NCBI GenBank assembly: GCA_937975685.1 | Contig: CALJUG010000004.1 | Span: 31,494 to 95,493 of the forward strand | Source: an uncultured bacterium | Lineage (GTDB): Bacteria > Planctomycetota > Planctomycetia > Pirellulales > PALSA-1355 | Reading direction: 5' to 3' | DNA: 64,000 nt | Shown: positions 1,858 to 12,690 of the stretch, piece after piece | How positions within the stretch are numbered: the first letter of the stretch is position 1 | Layout of the letters: each line of letters opens with the position of its first letter | The notes under the pieces: generated by a model | What the model was told of the DNA's origin: nothing | Database searches by the model: none | What the model saw: the letters and a program-made list of their open reading frames with translations, nothing else | Position numbers and translations under genes: made by a program

Positions 1858-2239
1858 GTTCGCCGATCGGTGCCTGCCATGCGCACGCTTGTGGGAGCAT
1901 GCTGGCGTGCGCTTCTTGCATGGCTCCTGCATGAACCTGGAATGCATGCCAGCGGTCCGCGTGCGGCACCTGCTCTGGAGCGTGCTAGCGGGAATCCGAA
2001 ATCGCGGGGAGATTCCCACCAGGCGGTGCGATTCGCGCACTTGGCGAACAACTCGCCTTGTCATGGGGCGCGGGTTGCTGTATCTCTACGCCGCTTTTGG
2101 CGGCCGGACCAGGTATGTCCCATCTGCTCCGGACCGGTTCGCCAGGACATAACGCAGCCGGTGCCACGGTCTTAGGGCCGCGGCCATCGGTGCGGCCACA
2201 TCTGAAGTTTCTTTCAACTTGATTCAAGAGCGAGCGTTC

Positions 2240-5200
2240 ATGGCTCTCGTCGGCCGCCAGGTCTTGCGATTGCTGCGCACAGCGTCAGCCGCGCTGATGG
2301 TCTGCGCCGCGGCGGCTGCCTTTCCAGGCGCGTTGCCGGCCCAGACGACGCCCAGCATGGCGTCGATGGAGCGGGCCACGCCGCTGCCGCCCCCGCAGCA
2401 AACCCTCGAGCTGCCTCCGCAAGGGTCGTTGCAGCCGCCGCCCCCCGCGCGGCCCGCGGCGCCCGTGCTGCAAGTGGTCGACATCAAGATCGAGGGCAAC
2501 CGCAAGCACTCGCGCGAGACGGTGCTCAACGCCATGAGCACGCGGATCGGCCACCCCTTCGAGCAATCGGCCTTCGAGCGGGACGTACGCAAGCTGACCT
2601 CGAAGAGCTGGTTCGTGCACGTCGTGCCCCGCAAAGATTACGTGCCCGGCGGCATCATCATCACGCTGGCCGTGGTCGAGCGCCCGGTGCTGGAGTACGT
2701 CCACTACCTGGGCAACCAGCGGATGAAAGACCGCACGCTGGCCAAGAAGAGCGGGCTGAAAAAAGGGGACCCGTTCGATCCCTACGCCGTGCGCGAGGGC
2801 GCCCGCAAGCTGGAAACCTTCTACCAGTCCAAGGGCTTCAGCGACGCCTCGGTCGAGGTGCCCGAGGGCACCAAACCCGGCGATCGCGGCGCGGTGTACC
2901 TGATTCACGAAGGCCAGAAGCTCAAGTTCAGCGACATCTCGTTCGTCGGCAACAGCCGGGCCATTGCCCCCGACGGCCGGCTCAAGAAGGTGATCGAATC
3001 GCGCGAGCCCTTTCTCTTCTTCTTCAAGGGCGAAGTGGACCGCAACAAGATCAAGCGCGACGAGGAAAAGCTCGAGCTGTACTACCGCAGCCTGGGCTTC
3101 TTCAAAGCCCGCGTCGGCAGCGACTATGAGTACAACGAAGACGAAGACCGCATGAAGCTGGTCTTTTACATCGACGAAGGGGTGCGCTACAACGTGCGCA
3201 ACGTCTCGTTCATCGGCAACCACGTCTACCCCGAGGAAGCCCTGGGCGCCGATCTGCAGCTCAAGTCGGGCGACGCCTACGACCAGTCGAAGATGCAGGC
3301 CGATATCGGGGCGCTCAAGGACCTGTACGGCTCGAACGGCTACGTCTTTGCCGACGCCAATGCCGACCTGCGGTTCGATCTGGAACCCGGTGTCGTGGAT
3401 CTGATCTACAAGATCGAAGAAGGCCAGCAGTGGCGGATCGGCGACATCACCGTCACGATCAAGGGCGACAACCCGCACACCAAGCACTCGACGATTCTCA
3501 ACCAGTTGGGCATGCGGCCCGGCGACATCGCCGACATTCGCCAGTTCCGCGCCGGCGAGCGACGGATCAAGGCTTCCGGCTTGTTCAACATGGACCCGAG
3601 CAAGGGCGAATTGCCCAGCATCACGTTCCGGCTCCCCGAGTGGGCCGAAGCCGTGGCCGAGAATCCCCAGCGCGACGACGTGCGGCAGGCCAGCGGTTCC
3701 AGCTCGGTCCGCGGCCAAAGCCCCGACGACGACGAACCGTGGTCGGTCACCCCGCGATCGACGTCGGGTACGACCACGACCGCGCGCCAGCCCGCGCGCC
3801 GCCATCAGCGTGAGGCCGGCCGCACGACGGTGCGCGGACAGAGTCCCGACAACACGGCCGGCTGGGGCGGTTCGCACGTGAAACCCGTTTCGCCGGGACC
3901 GTCGTCCTTTGCCGTCAACCCGCCGACAACCGCGCAGCAGCGCTACGCGGCCGGCGGAGCGCAGTACGGACCGGCGGTGGGCTATTCCAACCAGGCACGT
4001 TACGACGCGCCCGTGCAGCCGGGCCCCGGCGGCCAGGTCACTCCGGCGCAGTACGCCGAGCCGGCCCAGGATCCACTCTCCAACGACACAATTCCGCCCT
4101 CGGGCGGCTATACGCCGCGCGACTTCGGTTCGGCTCCGGAAGTGACCCCGCCGGGCAACTTCCTGGGCCCCGATGGCATGCCGGGCACGCAGCCCAGCCT
4201 GCCGATCGACGTCGTGGCCAGCGAAGGCCAGACCGGCCGGTTCATGCTCGGTGCGGGCGTCAACTCCAACGCCGGTCTGGTGGGCTCGATCGTGCTGGAC
4301 GAGCAGAACTTCGACTGGCGCCGCTGGCCCACGAGCTGGGAAGACTTCCGCTCCGGCCGCGCGTTCCGCGGTGCCGGCCAGAAGCTGCGGATCGAAGCGG
4401 CCCCCGGTACCGAGGTGCAGCGCTACCTGTTCAACTTCTCCGAGCCGTTTCTGTTCGACACGCCGGTGAGCTTCGGCCTCAGCGGATACTACTTCAACCG
4501 GATTTACCTGAACTGGACCGAACAGCGCCTGGGCGGCCGCGTCACGCTGGGATACCAGTTCACGCCCGACTTCTCCGGCAGCCTGGGTCTGCGTGCCGAA
4601 GACGTGCTGTTGCCGGCAAGCAGTTTTAATCCTGAGGGCGTGCCCGATCTGGATGAGGCCGCGGGGCGCACGCAACTGTACAGCGCACGGGGATCGCTCG
4701 CACACGACACTCGGGACAGCACGTTCCTGCCGACCGAGGGCCACTACATCACCACGACGTTCGAGTACTTTGAAGGCACTTTCCAGTACCCCTGGTTCGC
4801 GCTGAACTTCCAGCAGCACTGGCTGTTGCGGCAGCGCCCCGACGGTACGGGACGCCACACCCTGAGTTACTACAACCAGCTCGGCTTCGCCGGGTCGGAC
4901 ACGCCGGTCTACGAACGGTTCTTTGCCGGTGGCTTCTCGACCCTCCGCGGTTTCCAGTTCCGCGGTGCATCGCCACGGCAGGACAGCCTAACTGAACCCG
5001 GCGAATCCGCCATCGTGGGTGGTGACTTTCAGTTCTTGAACTCGGTGGAGTACATGTTCCCGGTTACGGCAGACGACATGCTCAAGATGGTGGCCTTCGT
5101 CGACTTCGGCACCGTCGAGGAGAGCGTCGCAATGACTTGGGATGAGTTCCGCATCGCCCCGGGCGCAGGCATTCGCGTGACGATTCCCGCGATCAGCGCA

Positions 5201-5293
5201 GCGCCGATCGCGGTCGACTTTGCCGTGCCTGTCAAACACGCCGAGGGCGACCTGATCCAGAACGTCAGCTTCTTCGTCGGCGTGGCACGCTAG
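2240..5293 (+). CDS. bamA: Omp85/BamA-family outer-membrane protein assembly factor with a long low-complexity insert
   Basis: Signal peptide 'MALVGRQVLRLLRTASAALMVCAAAAAFPGALPAQ'. About five POTRA-like units (e.g. 'VVDIKIEGNRKHSRETVLNAMSTRIGHPFEQSAFERDVRKL'). C-terminal surface-antigen barrel ('GRFMLGAGVNSNAGLVGSIVLDEQNFDW ... FAGGFSTLRGFQFRGASP ... NVSFFVGVAR'). ATG 2240 is preferred over TTG 2219. Confidence 0.85.
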   Translation: MALVGRQVLRLLRTASAALMVCAAAAAFPGALPAQTTPSMASMERATPLPPPQQTLELPPQGSLQPPPPARPAAPVLQVVDIKIEGNRKHSRETVLNAMSTRIGHPFEQSAFERDVRKLTSKSWFVHVVPRKDYVPGGIIITLAVVERPVLEYVHYLGNQRMKDRTLAKKSGLKKGDPFDPYAVREGARKLETFYQSKGFSDASVEVPEGTKPGDRGAVYLIHEGQKLKFSDISFVGNSRAIAPDGRLKKVIESREPFLFFFKGEVDRNKIKRDEEKLELYYRSLGFFKARVGSDYEYNEDEDRMKLVFYIDEGVRYNVRNVSFIGNHVYPEEALGADLQLKSGDAYDQSKMQADIGALKDLYGSNGYVFADANADLRFDLEPGVVDLIYKIEEGQQWRIGDITVTIKGDNPHTKHSTILNQLGMRPGDIADIRQFRAGERRIKASGLFNMDPSKGELPSITFRLPEWAEAVAENPQRDDVRQASGSSSVRGQSPDDDEPWSVTPRSTSGTTTTARQPARRHQREAGRTTVRGQSPDNTAGWGGSHVKPVSPGPSSFAVNPPTTAQQRYAAGGAQYGPAVGYSNQARYDAPVQPGPGGQVTPAQYAEPAQDPLSNDTIPPSGGYTPRDFGSAPEVTPPGNFLGPDGMPGTQPSLPIDVVASEGQTGRFMLGAGVNSNAGLVGSIVLDEQNFDWRRWPTSWEDFRSGRAFRGAGQKLRIEAAPGTEVQRYLFNFSEPFLFDTPVSFGLSGYYFNRIYLNWTEQRLGGRVTLGYQFTPDFSGSLGLRAEDVLLPASSFNPEGVPDLDEAAGRTQLYSARGSLAHDTRDSTFLPTEGHYITTTFEYFEGTFQYPWFALNFQQHWLLRQRPDGTGRHTLSYYNQLGFAGSDTPVYERFFAGGFSTLRGFQFRGASPRQDSLTEPGESAIVGGDFQFLNSVEYMFPVTADDMLKMVAFVDFGTVEESVAMTWDEFRIAPGAGIRVTIPAISAAPIAVDFAVPVKHAEGDLIQNVSFFVGVAR

Positions 5294-5315
5294 GCCGGCT
5301 GAGCCGTCGTCGGAA

Positions 5316-5696
5316 TCACCAGCGATAGCCGTAACCGTAGTACCGCGGCGTGTAGATCGGGTAGCGGTAGCCGCCGAAGGGGTAGCTGAACGTGCTGCCC
5401 GCCCCGTAGTAGGGCACGCGGCCGTAGTAGCCGTAGTACGGTCGAAACGCGTTGTAGCCCCGGTAGTACGGACGGTAGCCGTAGCGATAGTCGAAGCCGC
5501 GGGCATACGGTCGGTAGTACGAGCGATAGCCGTAGCCGTAACCGTAGTAGCCCCGCACGGGCGTGACAGCCAGCCCGGTGCCGGTCGAACGATAGGTGGC
5601 CGCCACGCCGGGTGTGGCCGCTTTGACGACAGGTGTTGCGCAGGTGAAACAACCCACGACTGCGAGCGCAACTGCCGCTTTGGTCAAACGTTTCAT
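5316..5696 (-). CDS. Small secreted Tyr/Gly/Arg-rich low-complexity protein, function unknown
   Basis: ATG start and signal peptide 'MKRLTKAAVALAVVGCFTCATPVVKA'. The tail is 77 aa with 28 Tyr by my count (YYGYGYGYRSYYRPYARGFDYRYGYRPYYRGY...YGYGYRW). It converges on the bamA stop 23 nt away. Being low-complexity, coding status rests on the signal peptide and the intact frame. Confidence 0.55.
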   Translation of the reverse strand: MKRLTKAAVALAVVGCFTCATPVVKAATPGVAATYRSTGTGLAVTPVRGYYGYGYGYRSYYRPYARGFDYRYGYRPYYRGYNAFRPYYGYYGRVPYYGAGSTFSYPFGGYRYPIYTPRYYGYGYRW

Positions 5697-5814
5697 CGAT
5701 CTGCCCTCCTTTGAGACACCGCTGGTGTCGCCTGGGCAGATCGCTAGTGCAAACCTGATGCCGCTGATAGCAGCCAGAAGGACAATCCGCAGGACGCGCC
5801 CCGCCGCTAACCGC

Positions 5815-6663
5815 TTAGGAGGGGCCGCCTTGCAGGCTGACGGCCAGCTTGCCCAAGGCTTCGGTTTCGATCTGGCGGACCCGTTCGCGGGTCAGGCCTA
5901 GCGCCTCGCCGATCTCTTTGAGCGTTTTGGGCTCATGGTCCTCGAGGCCGAACCGCATCCGCAGCACCGTGGCCTCGCGGGGGTCCATGGTCTCGAGCAT
6001 CTGCATCACGTGGACCAGGTTGTCGCTGTCGACCAGCTCCTCGTCGGGGCTCTTGAGCCGCTCGTCCATCACCATCTCGCCGAGCGACCAGCCGGTTTCC
6101 GATTGGTCGGTCTGCGGCGTGGAGTTGTAGATGCGGATGGCCTTCTTGATGATCGGCAGCTTCTTCTTGGGCAAGCCCAACACGCGGGCCACTTCCTCGG
6201 GCGTGGGCGTGCGTCCCAACTCTTCGGCCAGCCGCGCCGTGGCCCGACGCCACTTGCTGAGCAGTTCGACCATGTAGGCCGGAATGCGGATCGTCTTGGC
6301 CGTGTTGATCAGGGCCCGTTTGATCGACTGCTTGATCCAGTAGCTGGCGTAGGTGCTGAAGCGGGTGCCGACGCCGGGATCGAACCCCTCGACCGCGCGT
6401 AGTAGGCCGAGGTTGCCTTCTTCGATCAGGTCCTGCAGGCTCAGGCCCTTGCCGGTGTAGCCCCGGGCGATGTTGACCACCAGCCGCAGGTTGGCGCGGA
6501 CCATACGGTCGCGGGCGCGGATGTCGCCGTTGCCGATGGCGGTGGCCAGTTCTTGTTCGTCCTGGGCCGTCAGCAGCGACGTCTCGTTGATCTCGCGGAG
6601 ATAGGTCTCCAGCGGCGTCTGCACGGCGGATGTTTGTCGTCGTCGTGTCGTAGTCATACCCAT
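5815..6663 (-). CDS. RNA polymerase sigma factor, sigma-70 family (RpoD/RpoS-like, regions 1.2-4.2)
   Basis: Region 2 'ANLRLVVNIARGYTGKGLSLQDLIEEGNLGLLRAVEGFDPGVGTRFSTYASYWIKQSIKRAL'. Region 3 'IRIPAYMVELLSKW'. Region 4.2 'LKEIGEALGLTRERVRQIETEALGKL'. Confidence 0.9.
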   Translation of the reverse strand: MGMTTTRRRQTSAVQTPLETYLREINETSLLTAQDEQELATAIGNGDIRARDRMVRANLRLVVNIARGYTGKGLSLQDLIEEGNLGLLRAVEGFDPGVGTRFSTYASYWIKQSIKRALINTAKTIRIPAYMVELLSKWRRATARLAEELGRTPTPEEVARVLGLPKKKLPIIKKAIRIYNSTPQTDQSETGWSLGEMVMDERLKSPDEELVDSDNLVHVMQMLETMDPREATVLRMRFGLEDHEPKTLKEIGEALGLTRERVRQIETEALGKLAVSLQGGPS

Positions 6664-7037
6664 TCGGTAGCCATGCCCTGGACTGCGTTGTTTGGAACAA
6701 CTTCACTATCGTCGTCTACGAAAGACTTTCTGCACGTCGCGTGCCGCGCGACGAGGTGAGACGAATGTGAGGTGCGTTCGCGGTGTGCCGAAAAAAGCGG
6801 CCCCACGGATCACGACCCGCGCGGCGAAACGAAAGTTCGCATTGTGCCCGGCGTAGTGCCGGCATGTGCCTCGCCGGCGCGCCGCAGAAAGCTGCTGTGC
6901 AGGTTGCGCCGGAGAAAGCGGCCGTGCCGCCGCCGCGCGCCGCCCGGGCAGGGCCTGCGCTGGCGCCGTCCGCGGCGGAGGCTTGACGCCCAGGAAGTAC
7001 ATCGATCTTCCGGTCATGCCAATCGCCGGGCCTAGCA

Positions 7038-9365: not shown

Positions 9366-11462
9366 ATGGCGAAAAGTGGCGCCGTTTGGGGTATCGATAT
9401 CGGGCAATGCGCGGTCAAAGCGCTGCGCTGCCAGCCCGGCGAGACCGACGACGTAATCGTTGCCGACGCCTTCGATTACATCGAGTACCCGAAGATTCTC
9501 AGCCAGCCCGACGCCGACCCCGCCGAGCTGGTGCGCGAGGCACTCGAGCTGTTTCTGTCGCGCAACACCGTGCGCGGCGACAAGGTGGCCATTTCCGTCT
9601 CGGGCCAGAGCGGCCTGGCGCGGTTTATCAAGCTGCCCCCGGTCGAGTCGAAAAAGATTCCCGACATCGTCAAATACGAAGCCAGGCAACAAATTCCCTT
9701 TGCGCTGGAAGACGTGGTCTGGGATTACCAGCAAATGCAGGGGGGCAGCGAAGAAGACGGCTTCGCCCTGGAAACCGAAGTCGGCTTGTTCGCCATGAAG
9801 CGCGACCAGGCCGAACGGGCCCTCAAGCCGTTCGACGACGCCGGCATCGAAGTCGATATCGTGCAGCTCACGCCGCTGGCGATCTACAACTTCACCGTCT
9901 TCGACCAGATGAACGATTTGCCTCCGGCCGAAGAGTACGACCCGGAGAATCCGCCCGAGTCAATCGTCGTCATCTCGCTGGGAACCGACACCACGGACCT
10001 GGTGATCACCAACGGGTACCGCGTCTGGCAGCGGAGCATCGCCCTGGGCGGGAGCCATTTCACCAAGGCGCTGACCAAGGAGCTGCGGCTCACGTTCGCC
10101 AAGGCCGAACATCTGAAGAAGAACGCTTCGCAGGCCGAAGATCCCAAGGCCGTGTTTCAGGCCATGCGGCCCGTGTTCAACGACCTGTTGACGCAAATTC
10201 AGCGGTCGATCGGCTACTTCACCAGCATCGATCGCGACGCCAAGATCGGCCGCGTGATCGCCCTGGGCAATGCCATGAAACTGCCCGGGCTGCAGAAGTA
10301 CCTGTCGCAGAACCTGGGCCAGAACGTGGCCGAGGTGAAAGGCTATCGCGGGCTGAATGGCCCGACCGTGGTCGACGCGCCGGCCTTCAAGAGCAACCTG
10401 CTCAGCTTCCCGGTGTGCTACGGACTGGCGCTACAGGGGATGGACAAGTCGAGCCTGTCGACGAACCTGCTGCCGCCGGAGATTCTCACCGACCGGATGA
10501 TCCGGGAGAAGAAGCCGTGGGCCGTGGCGATGGTGGCCATGTTGCTGTTGGGCATCACGATCAACTTCCTGGGGCACTGGCGGGCCTGGAACTCGGTGCA
10601 CCCCGAGAGGTTCTCCGCGGCCTCAAGCGCCGCCGATCAGGCATCCAGCATGGCCAGCAGCGCGCGCAGCGACTACGAGGCCCAAAAGGCGAAATTCGAA
10701 GAGATTCATGCGATCGGCGAGGGCCTGGTCAGCAACGTCGAGGGACGCTTCTTGTGGCTCGAGTTGATCGCCGCGCTGAACCAGTGCCTGCCGTCGGATC
10801 CGCCGGGCGAGCGTCCTGAAGAAATCGGCCAGCGCGAAGAAATCCATATCACGGGGCTCGATTGCGAATGGTACCCGGATCTGGCCACGTGGTATTCCTC
10901 GGGGATCGGTGAACGCATTCAAGCGGCCAAGCAGGCCGAGCAGGCGCCCGGCAGCGCGGGCGGTGCGGACACAGCTTCGCCGGATGGCCAGGGCGTGCCG
11001 CCCGAGTCGGCGGATCCTTTCGGGGCGGCAGCCAACGGGGCCGGACCTGGGCCGGGGGCGCCTCCCGGCGGAACGCCGGATACGGGCCCCACGGGTCCCG
11101 GCTGGGTGATCGAGCTGCGGGGGTATCACTATCACAACGAAGACCGTCGGCGGTTCGGCGCGGCTTTCGTGCGCGATACGCTGGTCGAAAACCTCCGCGA
11201 GAAGGAGGTTCAGGTGCTTGATCGGAGCGGCAATCCCACGACCGTGCCCGTCTCGGACTTGGGGATCAGCCATCCGGTGATCCTCACCGACGACGTCACC
11301 TTAAAGGACGAGACGATCGAGGACCGCACGACGGGAGAGAAGATCCCCGTGAAGGTGTGGCATTTCACTTTGCAGTTTGCCTGGTCGCCGACCACGATCA
11401 GCGAGCGCGAGGAAAACAAAGCGCAGGCCGACGCCGCGTTGACCGCGGTGGGGGGACAATAG
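9366..11462 (+). CDS. pilM: PilM-like actin-fold ATPase fused to a PilN-like transmembrane/periplasmic module
   Basis: N-terminal PilM-type motifs 'VWGIDIGQCAVKAL', 'ISLGTDTTDLVITNG', 'IALGGSHFTKAL', 'VIALGNAMKLPGL'. These are followed by the PilN-type 'TNLLPPEI' peptide, a TM helix 'WAVAMVAMLLLGITINFLGHW', a coiled segment and an alpha/beta-like tail split by a Pro/Gly-rich insert. Confidence 0.8.
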   Translation: MAKSGAVWGIDIGQCAVKALRCQPGETDDVIVADAFDYIEYPKILSQPDADPAELVREALELFLSRNTVRGDKVAISVSGQSGLARFIKLPPVESKKIPDIVKYEARQQIPFALEDVVWDYQQMQGGSEEDGFALETEVGLFAMKRDQAERALKPFDDAGIEVDIVQLTPLAIYNFTVFDQMNDLPPAEEYDPENPPESIVVISLGTDTTDLVITNGYRVWQRSIALGGSHFTKALTKELRLTFAKAEHLKKNASQAEDPKAVFQAMRPVFNDLLTQIQRSIGYFTSIDRDAKIGRVIALGNAMKLPGLQKYLSQNLGQNVAEVKGYRGLNGPTVVDAPAFKSNLLSFPVCYGLALQGMDKSSLSTNLLPPEILTDRMIREKKPWAVAMVAMLLLGITINFLGHWRAWNSVHPERFSAASSAADQASSMASSARSDYEAQKAKFEEIHAIGEGLVSNVEGRFLWLELIAALNQCLPSDPPGERPEEIGQREEIHITGLDCEWYPDLATWYSSGIGERIQAAKQAEQAPGSAGGADTASPDGQGVPPESADPFGAAANGAGPGPGAPPGGTPDTGPTGPGWVIELRGYHYHNEDRRRFGAAFVRDTLVENLREKEVQVLDRSGNPTTVPVSDLGISHPVILTDDVTLKDETIEDRTTGEKIPVKVWHFTLQFAWSPTTISEREENKAQADAALTAVGGQ

Positions 11463-11463
11463 C

Positions 11464-12690
11464 ATGGATCAAGTCAAGGTCGTCCTGGGCTACGTGCAGA
11501 AGTACCATTTCTGGTTGCTGTGCGTCGTCGTGATCGTCGCCGGGCTGGTCGGCTGGATGAAAGCCAGCGGGAGCCTGTCGCAGGAGTACCAGACGCACAA
11601 AGGCACGGTGACGGGCAAGTACGATTCCCTGGTAGGCATCCTCAACGGCGAGACGCCCCCCAATGCCGATTGGACGGCGTCGCTGGCGGAGCTCACGCAA
11701 CAGGAGCGCGAAAAGGTGCGGGCCGCCTGGCAGGCCGTGTACGACGATCAGCAGAAGGTGCTCGATTGGCCCATCGACGTGATGGGCGACGAGTTTGCCC
11801 AGCGAATCGCCGACGCCAAGCCGGGCAGCGAGATCCCGCAGAACGACCGCGCCTTCTATCAGAACAATGTCATCAACAATGAATTCCCGCGGCTGCGCGA
11901 AATCGTCGAGGCCCCCGCGCCGGACGCCATGACGGGCCGCAGCGACGGCGACGATCAATCGAGGATGGCCCAGTACAAAGTCGTGTGGGACAGCGAGAGC
12001 CAGGACGACGTGCGCGAAATGCTCGCGATGACCGGCAGCGTCCCTACGTCGCAGGCCGTCTGGCAACGGCAGGAAGATCTGTGGGTATTCAAGGCGCTGT
12101 TGAACATCATCCGCAAGACGAACGAGGGCACGCAATACAACTCGCGGGTCAAGATCATCGAGGAGTTGTCGATCGGCAAGGAGGCGGCCGAGAAGTTCGC
12201 CGAGGGGAAGGCCCCGGGACACATTGAGACCTTGGCCAACGCCGCGCCGAGTGGCGCGGCCATGACCCCGCCGGCACCGCCGCCGGACCCGACCATCGAG
12301 CGCCCGTTGGACGAGAACCGCTATCTCGACGCCGACGGCAATCCGCTGCCCACGCTGCCCCCCGGCGAGCAATACAAGCGGATGCCCGTGTTCATGAAGC
12401 TGGTGATGGATCAGCGCGAGATCGGGCGGTTGCTGGCCGAATGCGCCAACTATCCGCTGCCGGTCGAGGTGCACCAGTTTCGCCTCAATCCCAAGTCGAA
12501 GCAGGAAAAAAGCAAGCGATCCAGTCAGTCATCGACCGGAGCCGCTCAAGCGCGGATGGGACCGCCGGCCGCCGTCCCCGACGCGTATGACGTGACCGTC
12601 GAGATCAGCGGAATCATTTACATCTTCAATCCGCCCGACATGGAAAAACTGGGAGTCCCGGCCGACGGCGCGCAGTTGGCCGGCAGGTAG
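11464..12690 (+). CDS. Single-pass membrane protein of the PilM-secretin cluster (unknown family)
   Basis: The ATG lies 1 nt after the pilM-like stop codon (11460-11462). N-terminal TM 'HFWLLCVVVIVAGLVGW'. GC-rich third positions throughout. I recognise no family motif. Confidence 0.7.
   Translation: MDQVKVVLGYVQKYHFWLLCVVVIVAGLVGWMKASGSLSQEYQTHKGTVTGKYDSLVGILNGETPPNADWTASLAELTQQEREKVRAAWQAVYDDQQKVLDWPIDVMGDEFAQRIADAKPGSEIPQNDRAFYQNNVINNEFPRLREIVEAPAPDAMTGRSDGDDQSRMAQYKVVWDSESQDDVREMLAMTGSVPTSQAVWQRQEDLWVFKALLNIIRKTNEGTQYNSRVKIIEELSIGKEAAEKFAEGKAPGHIETLANAAPSGAAMTPPAPPPDPTIERPLDENRYLDADGNPLPTLPPGEQYKRMPVFMKLVMDQREIGRLLAECANYPLPVEVHQFRLNPKSKQEKSKRSSQSSTGAAQARMGPPAAVPDAYDVTVEISGIIYIFNPPDMEKLGVPADGAQLAGR

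Follow-up and report, generated by a model that had tools for sequence, protein, structure and literature searches.

The 64-kb stretch of DNA analysed here (the window), which comes from a MAG, carries, between bamA and a sigma factor gene, a genuine gene for an exported mini-protein rich in Tyr, Gly, Arg and Pro, as a preliminary description of this DNA had proposed: the gene has a Shine-Dalgarno sequence, encodes a signal peptide and has kept its reading frame among orthologues with dN/dS of 0.2-0.3. Judged by profile comparison, many small bacterial proteins resemble it and form with it one large family without annotation. As to its role, we tentatively suggest, with somewhat less than even confidence, that it is an exported, disordered, cationic envelope protein rich in Tyr and Arg, cohesive or adhesive in character and docked by its C-terminal strand, and that the gene has its own sigma-54-type promoter-like element and leader hairpin. 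The coordinates of the features discussed below are collected in Table 1.

Table 1. Features of the bamA/sigma factor region of the window, in positions of the window
Feature	Position	Strand	Remarks
bamA, four POTRA stretches and Omp85 barrel	2219..5293	(+)	TIGR03303 364 bits, cut-off 297
Spacer between convergent stops	5294..5315	.	22 nt; folding z-score 0.13
CDS of Tyr-rich exported protein	5316..5696	(-)	126 aa; orthologues keep frame, dN/dS 0.2-0.3
C-terminal strand PRYYGYGYRW	5319..5348	(-)	aromatics at 0, -2, -4 and -6; W126 is the sole Trp
Tyr/Gly/Arg/Pro low-complexity tail, aa 50-126, RPY and GYGY units	5319..5549	(-)	predicted disordered
N-terminal mature part, aa 27-49, A-x-Y-R ... 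V-T-P-V-R motif (ATYRSTGTGLAVTPVR)	5550..5618	(-)	orthologue alignment
Signal peptide, aa 1-26 (MKRLTKAAVALAVVGCFTCATPVVKA|A)	5619..5696	(-)	also contains lipobox-like VVGC, aa 13-16
Predicted leader hairpin, CGATCTGCCC pairing GGGCAGATCG, inner stem GACACC/GGTGTC	5697..5743	(-)	conservation and covariation
Shine-Dalgarno sequence AAGGAGGG	5704..5711	(-)	7 nt 5' of ATG; GGAGG invariant in 9/9 aligned leaders
Sigma-54-like -24/-12 element CGGCATCAGGTTTGCA (GG-N10-GC)	5748..5763	(-)	consensus TGGCAC-N5-TTGCW
RpoS/RpoD-like sigma-70 family gene, 282 aa	5815..6663	(-)	directly upstream of Tyr-rich gene, same strand

The gene and its orthologues

The position and strand of the reading frame and the preliminary count of 28 Tyr in the last 77 residues (36%) agree with our recount. 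The whole protein has exactly the sequence of REK17207.1, annotated as hypothetical in a Planctomycetota MAG. It contains 29 Tyr, 19 Gly, 14 Arg and 10 Pro, and would measure ~100 aa (~12 kDa, with a net charge of about +12) once its signal peptide is cleaved; in the tail there are 7 Pro in 77 aa (9%) and Gly makes up 18%. Tyr averages 2.0% in the other long ORFs of the window with high GC3 (that of the Tyr-rich gene is 0.79), giving a binomial P of 3e-22 for the Tyr-rich ORF, and no second ORF across the 64 kb approaches such a Tyr content. The earlier remark that the protein is unusual for a bacterial exported protein needs correcting insofar as it implies a one-off, as at least 739 clusters of similar sequences were found.

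Between the sigma gene and bamA, intact orthologues measuring 110-136 aa are present at L001, L002, L006, L007, L020, L022, L081, L082, L090, L093 and L094 and on the P0019 contig. The order in which the sigma gene is followed by a Tyr-rich gene converging on bamA recurs in at least 13 Pirellulales loci, which answers in the affirmative the suggestion that synteny beside bamA be checked; a composition-corrected homologue search, likewise suggested, yielded phmmer homologues down to E = 6e-8. The sigma gene is 90-96% identical among the loci where it adjoins a Tyr-rich orthologue. The orthologues differ in length and retain the reading frame nonetheless, third codon positions differ about twice as often as first and second positions do, and frame, signal peptide and motifs have been kept across genomes whose BamA proteins are only 51-64% identical.

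Architecture of the mature protein

Following the signal peptide, the orthologue alignment reveals a short N-terminal motif with the consensus AVYxxxxxxxxVTPVR, in which V47 is invariant and A33 nearly so, and which AlphaFold models with a pLDDT of 72-78. The tail beyond it is predicted to be intrinsically disordered: in an AlphaFold2 model built from a 52-sequence alignment, pLDDT falls below 50 for most of residues 57-126, and secondary structure is absent there. Its repeat units are typical of the family at large, with YRPYY present in 151 and YGYGY in 142 of 177 members, and family tails as a whole consist of 32% Y, 19.5% G, 14% R and 10% P, with a median net charge of +9.5 and acidic residues at only 125 of 9250 positions.

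The protein closes with a strand of alternating aromatic residues. The last residue is W, F or Y in 119 of 124 family members (55, 42 and 22, respectively), against a tail background of 1.6% W and 0.6% F, and hydrophobic residues other than Tyr occur at frequencies of 0.42-0.80 at positions 0, -2, -4 and -6 as compared to 0.064 elsewhere in the tail. As a family feature, this strand matches what has been published on the C-terminus of outer membrane proteins (OMPs), whose final strand has an aromatic last residue, Tyr at +3 and a hydrophobic residue at +5 (PMC3582582). The strand of the window protein itself is "tyrosinised" (YYGYGYRW), and its match to this beta-signal could partly reflect composition. 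A C-terminal motif, GFSFGFGW, is common to Pirellulales orthologues and to a locus assigned to the Alphaproteobacteria by its ribosomal operon. Three conserved elements had been overlooked in the earlier reading of this DNA, namely the N-terminal motif, the strand of aromatic residues at the C-terminus and the regulatory leader.

Breadth of the family

Profile searches recovered the at least 739 similar small proteins (counted as sequence clusters), the alphaproteobacterial locus among them; E-values from low-complexity profiles can be inflated, and what looks like a broad family may be partly homology and partly convergence. Its members are built alike, from a signal peptide, a short motif and YRPYY/GYGY repeats, with W, F or Y at the end of a distinct C-terminal strand. 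Homologues surfaced only by way of exhaustive phmmer, synteny and profiles; a word-indexed search with the single sequence matched the protein itself and nothing else. Against Pfam-A, 7 of 10 family representatives matched 0 families at E up to 10 and the remaining 3 gave noise only, and an NCBIfam search produced no credible match. The best hit of a PDB profile search was an unrelated viral penton protein (E = 0.026). No names were found among the family matches and no function names in cluster look-ups; nothing relevant came from literature searches, whether on the repeat and C-terminal motifs or on Tyr-rich exported proteins of envelopes or of Planctomycetes, and a tblastn search of plasmids with an alphaproteobacterial-type member gave no match.

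The leader and its promoter-like element

The predicted fold of the leader is a hairpin in which the ribosome-binding site is sequestered, the 3' arm overlapping the Shine-Dalgarno sequence and the 5' side containing an invariant GGCGAC. In the alignment of orthologous leaders, 84.6% of cells are paired, as compared to at most 48% in slid controls, five pairs show compensatory change, and the covariation score was reached by 0 of 500 shuffles. A scan against Rfam gave no match. When metagenomes were scanned with the strict leader pattern, L090 was the only further true case, accompanied by two chance matches.

Upstream of the hairpin lies a -24/-12 element resembling those recognized by sigma-54, kept as GGCAY-N5-TTGC with fixed spacing in 10 orthologous leaders. 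Matches to the -24/-12 consensus with one mismatch are no more frequent in the window than expected by chance (2 found, 3.2 expected), and the weight we give to the element therefore comes from its conservation in orthologues and not from the single match in the window. Some distant orthologues have a sigma-70-like TTGACN-N16-18-TAGCAT in its place. The 64-kb window contains neither rpoN nor a gene for an enhancer-binding activator; related Pirellulales loci do have a sigma-54 gene (with its RpoN box) and genes for GAFTGA activators, and sigma-54 regulons of Planctomycetia, together with a link to the "bacterial exterior", have been described (PMC12316311, PMC3162934). To be set against the element is the geometry of the leader, in that the covarying outer-stem pairs would fall very close to a canonical sigma-54 start, or else 5' of it. 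Scans of positions 5100-6900 found no sigma-70 promoter and a single terminator-like site, which lies on the opposite strand inside the sigma gene and is unrelated. With its combination of a -24/-12-like element and a ribosome-binding-site hairpin, the conserved leader is a compact candidate regulatory element, of which few are known in the phylum.

A proposed cohesive envelope protein and its nearest analogues

The explanation that we tentatively prefer starts from what the sequence shows: export by Sec and cleavage leave a protein of ~100 aa composed of the N-terminal motif, the disordered YRPYY/GYGY tail and an amphipathic aromatic strand ending in Trp. This low-complexity protein would serve as a cohesive or adhesive material of the envelope or the cell surface. 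Multivalent pi-pi and cation-pi contacts of Tyr and Arg could form between the molecules themselves and with anionic polymers of the envelope (LPS, peptidoglycan, acidic polysaccharides), and the beta-signal-like strand may provide docking or anchorage to the outer membrane or else nucleate self-association. Expression would proceed from the gene's own conserved sigma-54-type promoter-like element, and the 5' leader hairpin would modulate it by sequestering the ribosome-binding site. Cohesion, adhesion and polyanion binding we infer from composition alone, and the analogies with phase-separating, adhesive and dityrosine-forming proteins drawn in the preliminary description are likewise analogies of composition only. 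Counting against this explanation, the window protein has no beta-barrel domain and so is not a classical BAM substrate.

Several known systems share parts of this design. With the beta-barrel OMPs that are substrates of BAM, the Tyr-rich protein shares the Sec signal peptide, the aromatic residue in last place and, counted from the C-terminus, an alternation in which every second residue is aromatic or hydrophobic; unlike them, it has no barrel (at least 8 amphipathic strands) and no predicted strands, with room for at most one strand of membrane length. Sulfur globule envelope (Sgp) proteins are reportedly rich in Gly and aromatic residues and repetitive. Those of Allochromatium vinosum (SgpA, SgpB and SgpC) combine small size and a structural role with Sec-dependent export (PMC10386293), traits that the Tyr-rich protein would share. 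Compared with Sgp as described, the Tyr-rich protein differs in being strongly cationic, rich in Arg and Pro and equipped with N- and C-terminal motifs of its own, and its family is hosted by Planctomycetota and Alphaproteobacteria, with no sulfur-oxidation context in the loci read; no Sgp names occur among the profile-search matches listed. With the eukaryotic prion-like and RGG regions of the FUS type it has in common Tyr and Arg "stickers" spaced by Gly and predicted disorder, and it departs from them as an extracytoplasmic bacterial protein of ~100 aa that is rich in Pro and has no RNA-binding context. As compared to the curli and Fap amyloids, its gene has only the sigma factor gene and bamA for neighbours instead of a secretion/nucleator operon, and its repeats are made of Y, G, R and P and not of Q and N.

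Sticker-and-spacer proteins have so far been studied almost only within eukaryotic cells, and the preferred explanation, if true, would mean that low-complexity proteins of this kind also operate in the bacterial periplasm or at the bacterial surface. It would also provide a name and a testable design for the at least 739 unannotated sequence clusters. Short, cationic and one-third Tyr, such proteins could easily be synthesised and may be of interest as adhesive or crosslinkable biomaterials. A broader version of the same idea, to which we assign a low probability, would make the family a new class of envelope protein, i.e., an extracytoplasmic disordered Tyr/Arg "sticker" that docks to BamA or the outer membrane by its beta-signal and forms a cohesive layer (condensate-like or crosslinked) tying the outer membrane to anionic polymers, represented by hundreds of clusters in Planctomycetota and Alphaproteobacteria and, beside bamA of Pirellulales, constituting one of three unrelated families.

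The bamA neighbourhood

The gene converges on bamA with exactly 22 nt between the stop codons, as had been noted; the TAG of bamA occupies 5291-5293 and the stop of the Tyr-rich gene 5316-5318. The spacer folds no better than its shuffles and contains no convincing terminator. It is possible to read this arrangement as the sign of a BAM-directed factor, in which the C-terminal beta-signal-like strand would pair with BamA or a BAM partner through beta-augmentation and the protein would act as an accessory, regulator or decoy of OMP assembly in Planctomycetes, in which most canonical Bam lipoproteins are not known to occur. Consistent with such a role are the fit of the alternating aromatic strand to a beta-signal and the tight convergent pairing with bamA, with 0-70 nt between the stops, in at least 13 loci. 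In addition, the post-bamA slot of other Pirellulales holds small, exported proteins rich in aromatic residues that belong to two further families, not homologous to this one, and all 19 strongly Tyr-rich ORFs detected in 80 loci lie downstream of bamA (18 within ~0.7 kb of its end and one at ~1.3 kb). One of the families in this slot, "QRPYPYHLDYY..." (type B), was considered for a common origin with the Tyr-rich family, which was rejected at an hhalign probability of 2.4%.

Several observations speak against a BAM-directed role. As the two genes are convergent they do not form one operon; the flanking genes are of the housekeeping type (ssb, rplI, dnaB, bamA and sigma), and a vertically inherited neutral position explains the synteny; in many Pirellulales the slot holds apt or nothing; and no bamA lies near the family members found elsewhere, among them those of other Pirellulales and that of the alphaproteobacterial locus. 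Adjacency to bamA is confined to two Pirellulales subfamilies, the other members not being beside bamA, and a family-wide link was rejected, four loci of other subfamilies sitting elsewhere. We regard the BamA link of the family as unproven and a BAM-directed function of the window protein as unlikely. The BAM accessory set of Planctomycetes is poorly known, and the combination of a beta-signal-like C-terminus with a conserved position at the side of bamA would offer a concrete handle on the organisation of the outer membrane in these bacteria.

Crosslinked, lipidated or antimicrobial alternatives

A tail with 28 Tyr in 77 aa, many YGY, YRY and YY units and regular Pro, in a protein that is exported, also invites the idea of a crosslinked matrix, in which YxY and YY units would be coupled oxidatively (as dityrosine or isodityrosine) by a peroxidase, laccase or tyrosinase of the periplasm or surface into an insoluble wall or sheath. 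Plant extensins, low-complexity cuticle proteins of insects and the spore-coat proteins CotC and CotU of B. subtilis are Tyr-rich, repetitive structural proteins, crosslinked through Tyr, of extracellular or surface locations with YxY/YY units and regular Pro, which the Tyr-rich protein likewise has, and they supply the analogy. There is no sequence relationship to these proteins, however, and no hydroxyproline/glycosylation system or associated oxidase here, and CotC and CotU, unlike the Tyr-rich protein, do without Sec export. No oxidase gene is conserved beside the Tyr-rich gene in any locus examined, and nothing in the sequence demands covalent chemistry. Crosslinking has a small share of our confidence.

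The Sec signal peptide claimed in the preliminary description is borne out by an n-region (MKRLTK), a 14-residue hydrophobic core and a VKA|A cleavage site, identified by a rule-based check only, and by a helix that AlphaFold predicts at residues 2-18 (pLDDT ~85); similar N-termini occur in 116 of 124 family members. The same segment contains V-V-G-C, which matches the relaxed lipobox [LVI][ASTVI][GAS]C, and the protein might instead be a lipoprotein whose mature form begins at a lipidated Cys16 and hangs from the membrane as a disordered cationic brush. Many orthologues (P0002, P0003, P0005, P0007 and P0009-P0012) have G/A-C at the equivalent position, but several of these Cys are surrounded by poor -3/-1 residues, and the Cys is missing from the close orthologues L001, L020, L090, P0014, P0015, P0022 and P0024, all of which have an AxA-type cleavage site ~10 residues past the Cys position. 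Since the Cys is not conserved, cleavage of the window protein by signal peptidase I is favoured and lipidation, for the same reason, is down-weighted to something we think unlikely.

Much further down the scale is a secreted cationic peptide with an antimicrobial or competitive function, comparable to the small, secreted, cationic NLP/CNC-type peptides of nematodes and arthropods with their GY repeats. Its small size, its export, its strong positive charge and its abundance of Gly and Tyr bring the Tyr-rich protein close to these peptides. In contrast to those peptides it is bacterial, and its gene is single-copy and vertically inherited in a housekeeping neighbourhood, with no immunity, processing or dedicated export genes at the Tyr-rich loci; the protein has a Sec signal peptide in place of a bacteriocin leader, and a dN/dS of 0.2-0.3 indicates purifying selection with no signature of an arms race. 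We consider this function very unlikely.

Repetition in the DNA

The preliminary description had also called the DNA itself a degenerate repeat. This proved to be only weakly so: 8 of the 21 copies of GTAGCCGTA in the whole window (at most 1 mismatch) lie inside 5325-5546, and there is no true tandem array, the Tandem Repeats Finder (TRF) output for the gene amounting to micro-arrays of 9 nt (x2) and 6 nt (x3.5). The longer degenerate copies have spacings that are all multiples of 3, and the periodicity of the DNA therefore reflects repeated Tyr-Gly-Arg codons and not a non-coding repeat; a frame-independent, head-to-tail non-coding tandem repeat is rejected on these spacings together with the TRF micro-arrays. 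Translation and promoter-like signals are present, the frame is kept and the region is unlike a non-coding repeat, the opposite in each of these three respects of what had been named as refuting the gene. That the frame is a chance product of GC-rich non-coding repeat DNA between bamA and the sigma gene, as might be argued from the 66% GC of the window, the long open ORFs that the same DNA carries in several frames and the frameshifts in two relatives, L008 and L073 (both MAG assemblies that retain the two halves of the protein), is effectively refuted by the conservation of motifs and frame across genomes at dN/dS 0.2-0.3, by the strongly conserved Shine-Dalgarno sequence and leader, and by a TRF result without a real tandem array.

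The protein and its reading frame

The minus-strand open reading frame that converges on bamA encodes a protein of 126 aa, MKRLTKAAVALAVVGCFTCATPVVKAATPGVAATYRSTGTGLAVTPVRGYYGYGYGYRSYYRPYARGFDYRYGYRPYYRGYNAFRPYYGYYGRVPYYGAGSTFSYPFGGYRYPIYTPRYYGYGYRW; REK17207.1, named "hypothetical protein" in a Planctomycetota MAG, has the identical sequence. The preliminary description of a secreted mini-protein that is about one-third tyrosine is borne out: n, h and c regions follow one another at the N-terminus as in a Sec signal peptide, and 28 of the 29 Tyr residues lie in the last 77 positions (36%). The whole protein also contains 19 Gly, 14 Arg and 10 Pro, with a single acidic residue and no Lys beyond the signal peptide, and its mature form would have about 100 aa, a mass of ~11.9 kDa and a net charge of ~+12. 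Among the window's 40 long ORFs of high GC3, mean Tyr content is 2.0% (binomial P = 3e-22 for the excess in the Tyr-rich ORF), and no second ORF in the 64 kb comes near such a content. GC3 of the gene is 0.79, in a window of 66% GC, and a Shine-Dalgarno sequence, AAGGAGGG, lies 7 nt 5' of its ATG.

The further claim that the DNA itself is a degenerate repeat stands in part. Nine-mers resembling GTAGCCGTA do cluster, 8 of the window's 21 falling within the gene region, but TRF detects no more than two arrays, 9-nt x2 and 6-nt x3.5, and the intervals between the longer degenerate copies are multiples of three, which is the signature of recurring Tyr-Gly-Arg codons. As a DNA repeat the region is weak.

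AlphaFold2, run on the larger of our two family alignments (A2, 52 sequences), gave a mean pLDDT of 58.7, with a helical signal peptide, residues 20-50 modelled at moderate confidence yet without secondary structure, and a tail that from residue 57 is mostly below 50. The monomer is best described, on this prediction, as intrinsically disordered. Read from its sequence, the product would be a small, cationic protein exported by Sec, in which a Tyr/Arg/Gly/Pro low-complexity tail is combined with conserved N- and C-terminal modules.

A family with a conserved C-terminus

The composition-corrected search that had been proposed did yield homologues: exhaustive phmmer returned five besides the window protein (E 6e-8 to 9e-4), a profile built from 11 sequences, syntenic or related (A1), matched 141 proteins, and the A2 profile matched at least 739 at E <=1e-3 among 8000 candidates scored, although E-values of such biased sequences are to be read with care. 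The architecture and end motifs common to the members argue for a real family. The profile matches listed are all of 83-183 aa, and none of them has a Pfam domain or a name other than "hypothetical". A signal-peptide-like N-terminus is present in 116 of 124 members, whose tails consist of 32% Y, 19.5% G, 14% R and 10% P, with acidic residues nearly absent and a median net charge of +9.5. Of 177 sequences, 151 contain YRPYY and 142 contain YGYGY. The Pirellulales subfamilies also conserve a short motif that follows the signal peptide, A-[VI]-Y-R ... V-T-P-V-R-[YW].

The last ~10 residues form a separate module, in most cases R-P-G-[FI]-S-[FL]-G-F-G-[WF], GRVGVGVW or GRPAFRYGVGWY. Of the 124 members, 119 terminate in W, F or Y (W 44%, F 34%, against tail backgrounds of 1.6% and 0.6%), and the non-Tyr hydrophobic fraction is 0.42-0.80 at positions 0, -2, -4 and -6 as compared to 0.064 in the remaining tail. 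In the window protein the module is PRYYGYGYRW, of which the final residue is the sole Trp of the protein. This C-terminal strand fits the published description of the outer-membrane protein insertion signal, with an aromatic last residue, Tyr at +3 and a hydrophobic residue at +5 (PMC3582582). The member at L085, an alphaproteobacterial locus by its rplS-trmD-rimM-rpsP operon, ends in GFSFGFGW, as do Pirellulales orthologues. Two tandem paralogues of the wider Tyr-rich family at L083, a locus unrelated to bamA, end in ...GPRVSVGVGVW and ...GGYGVGVGVW.

Neither ten representatives nor the family profile gave a credible match in Pfam, NCBIfam or PDB, and the searched literature held no match to the motifs. 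We rate these proteins, on their sequences, as an undescribed, widespread bacterial family with an architecture of its own; the family is large and unannotated, and its composition and conserved C-terminal signal are striking.

Conservation beside bamA

The neighbouring bamA is bona fide, with POTRA repeats, an Omp85 domain and a TIGR03303 score that exceeds the cut-off. Between its last POTRA match and its Omp85 barrel match, this BamA carries a ~260-aa insert rich in Pro, Gly, Gln and Ser. Upstream, the Tyr-rich gene is preceded by a gene for a 282-aa RpoS/RpoD-like sigma factor.

A BamA genome scan gave 80 Pirellulales loci, in which a scan detected 19 Tyr-dense ORFs; each lies downstream of bamA, and 18 are on the strand that converges with it. 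In the family of the window protein, a sigma gene followed by the Tyr-rich gene, which converges on bamA, dnaB and rplI, is the order that recurs in L001, L002, L006, L007, L020, L022, L062, L081, L082, L090, L093, L094 and the contig of the homologous protein P0019. Among these genomes BamA is only 51-64% identical, as compared to 90-96% for the sigma factor where a Tyr-rich orthologue adjoins it, a conservation that is unusually strong for a sigma factor lacking region 1.1. The 22 nt reported between the two stop codons were confirmed, and the convergent stops are 0-70 nt apart in all orthologous loci (spacers compared in L001, L007, L020, L081, L082, L093 and L094). Because the stops are so close and no terminator is recognisable between them in the window, the two transcripts may overlap.

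The orthologues keep an open frame of 110-136 aa, even in distant relatives, with a signal peptide, a common short motif and a Tyr-rich tail. The exceptions are L008 and L073, each with one frameshift and both halves recognisable, which may reflect either MAG assembly error or a recent pseudogene. At the codon level, dN/dS is ~0.2-0.3 (L020 versus L090, dN 0.115 and dS 0.363; window versus L081, dN 0.349 and dS 1.67), and differences are about twice as frequent at third positions as at first and second ones. Conserved frame, motifs, synteny and dN/dS together lead us to reject the reading that this is not a gene; it is under purifying selection and has a conserved leader of its own.

Features of the window and of related loci
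Feature	Location	Strand
BamA insert (residues ~458-715)	window ~3590-4365	+
Convergent spacer	window 5294-5315	
Tyr-rich gene	window 5316-5696	-
Leader hairpin, 3' arm covering Shine-Dalgarno (predicted fold, covariation)	window 5697-5743	-
Sigma-54-like -24/-12 element, GGCAY-N5-TTGCR	window 5748-5763	-
Sigma gene	window 5815-6663	-
PilM-like gene	window 9366-11462	
-24/-12-like motif GGCATTTCACTTTGCA	window 11359-11374	+
ORF after PilM-like gene	window 11464-12690	
Frameshifted orthologues	L008:9214-9606; L073:8980-9345	-
Tandem paralogues	L083:5374-5808; L083:6001-6396	+
Second slot family	L071:9222-9773; L032:7908-8426; L014:9465-10142; L075:9480-10058	-
Second slot family	L036; L048; L049; L068; L072	
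Third slot family	L014:9033-9458; L075:9026-9418; L040:9690-10136; L022:1165-1425; L062:9453-9809; L044:4234-4578	-
Third slot family	L052; L065	
RpoN-box or GAFTGA activator genes	L063 ~3153; L070 ~3110; L076 ~1225; L078 ~2965	+
RpoN-box or GAFTGA activator gene	L025 ~585	+
RpoN-box or GAFTGA activator gene	L017 ~9979	

Possible functions

We infer that the protein is a self-associating envelope or surface material, in which multivalent Tyr/Arg contacts would bind anionic polymers and the C-terminal aromatic strand would dock at the outer membrane or nucleate assembly. It is most like a loose class of secreted Gly/Tyr-rich structural proteins, which includes sulfur globule proteins, extensins, cuticle proteins and the spore-coat proteins CotC/CotU, and its composition recalls that of eukaryotic Tyr/Arg low-complexity domains. 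The sulfur globule (Sgp) proteins are exported and have a structural role (PMC10386293).

A functional link to BamA is a live but minority reading. In its favour, the two genes form a tight convergent pair that is conserved, the C-terminal strand agrees with the description of the insertion signal (PMC3582582), and in other Pirellulales this slot is taken by two more families of small exported proteins rich in aromatic residues. The second family, unannotated, has the invariant core FQRPYPYHLDYY(K/R).(R/K).GGSYAPYFGNLYGPP and shows no homology to the Tyr-rich family that hhalign could detect (probability 2.4%); the third, Trp/Tyr-rich and directly after bamA, has motifs like GGWYGYGFPVSTYRWGWFGAE..YPRVGW or YG.FGA...GYYGD..W, also given as (Y/W)G.FGA...GYYGD, and in some loci stands in tandem with a gene of the Tyr-rich or the second family. 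Neither has a Pfam match. Yet, being convergent, the two genes are not co-transcribed, the housekeeping neighbourhood means that the position could be simple inheritance, members at L083 (with a tandem paralogue), L085, L087 and L089 are far from bamA, and many Pirellulales have apt or nothing in the slot.

Alternatives to such an envelope material would be a tyrosine-crosslinked product, a protein lipid-anchored at Cys16, a BAM accessory factor or an antimicrobial. The protein is not an outer-membrane barrel, since it has no barrel, and it belongs neither to a curli- or Fap-type amyloid system nor to any Pfam, NCBIfam or PDB family.

The leader

The 118 nt that separate the Tyr-rich gene from the sigma gene are not neutral. 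Ten leaders (window, L001, L007, L008, L020, L081, L082, L090, L093 and L094) have in common a sigma-54-like element with rigid spacing, an invariant GGCGAC and a GGAGG Shine-Dalgarno core, a combination found solely before Tyr-rich genes in ~1 Mb of fetched loci. Pairing in the predicted hairpin holds in 84.6% of cells over the ten sequences, as compared to at most 48% with slid partners; five pairs have compensatory changes, and the covariation score was reached by none of 500 shuffles. The leader has no Rfam match. A canonical sigma-54 start would fall within the outer stem of the hairpin. The distant orthologues in L022, L024 and L073 have a sigma-70-like TTGACN-N16-18-TAGCAT in place of the sigma-54-like element, and in L093 and L094 both are present and overlap.

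Sigma-54 regulons have been described in Planctomycetia (PMC12316311). The 64-kb window contains no rpoN or sigma-54 activator gene; in several related Pirellulales loci, an RpoN-box gene and GAFTGA-bearing activator genes are found no more than a few kb from bamA. Elsewhere in the window, a -24/-12-like motif with one additional spacer base lies ~90 nt upstream of the ORF that follows the PilM-like gene.
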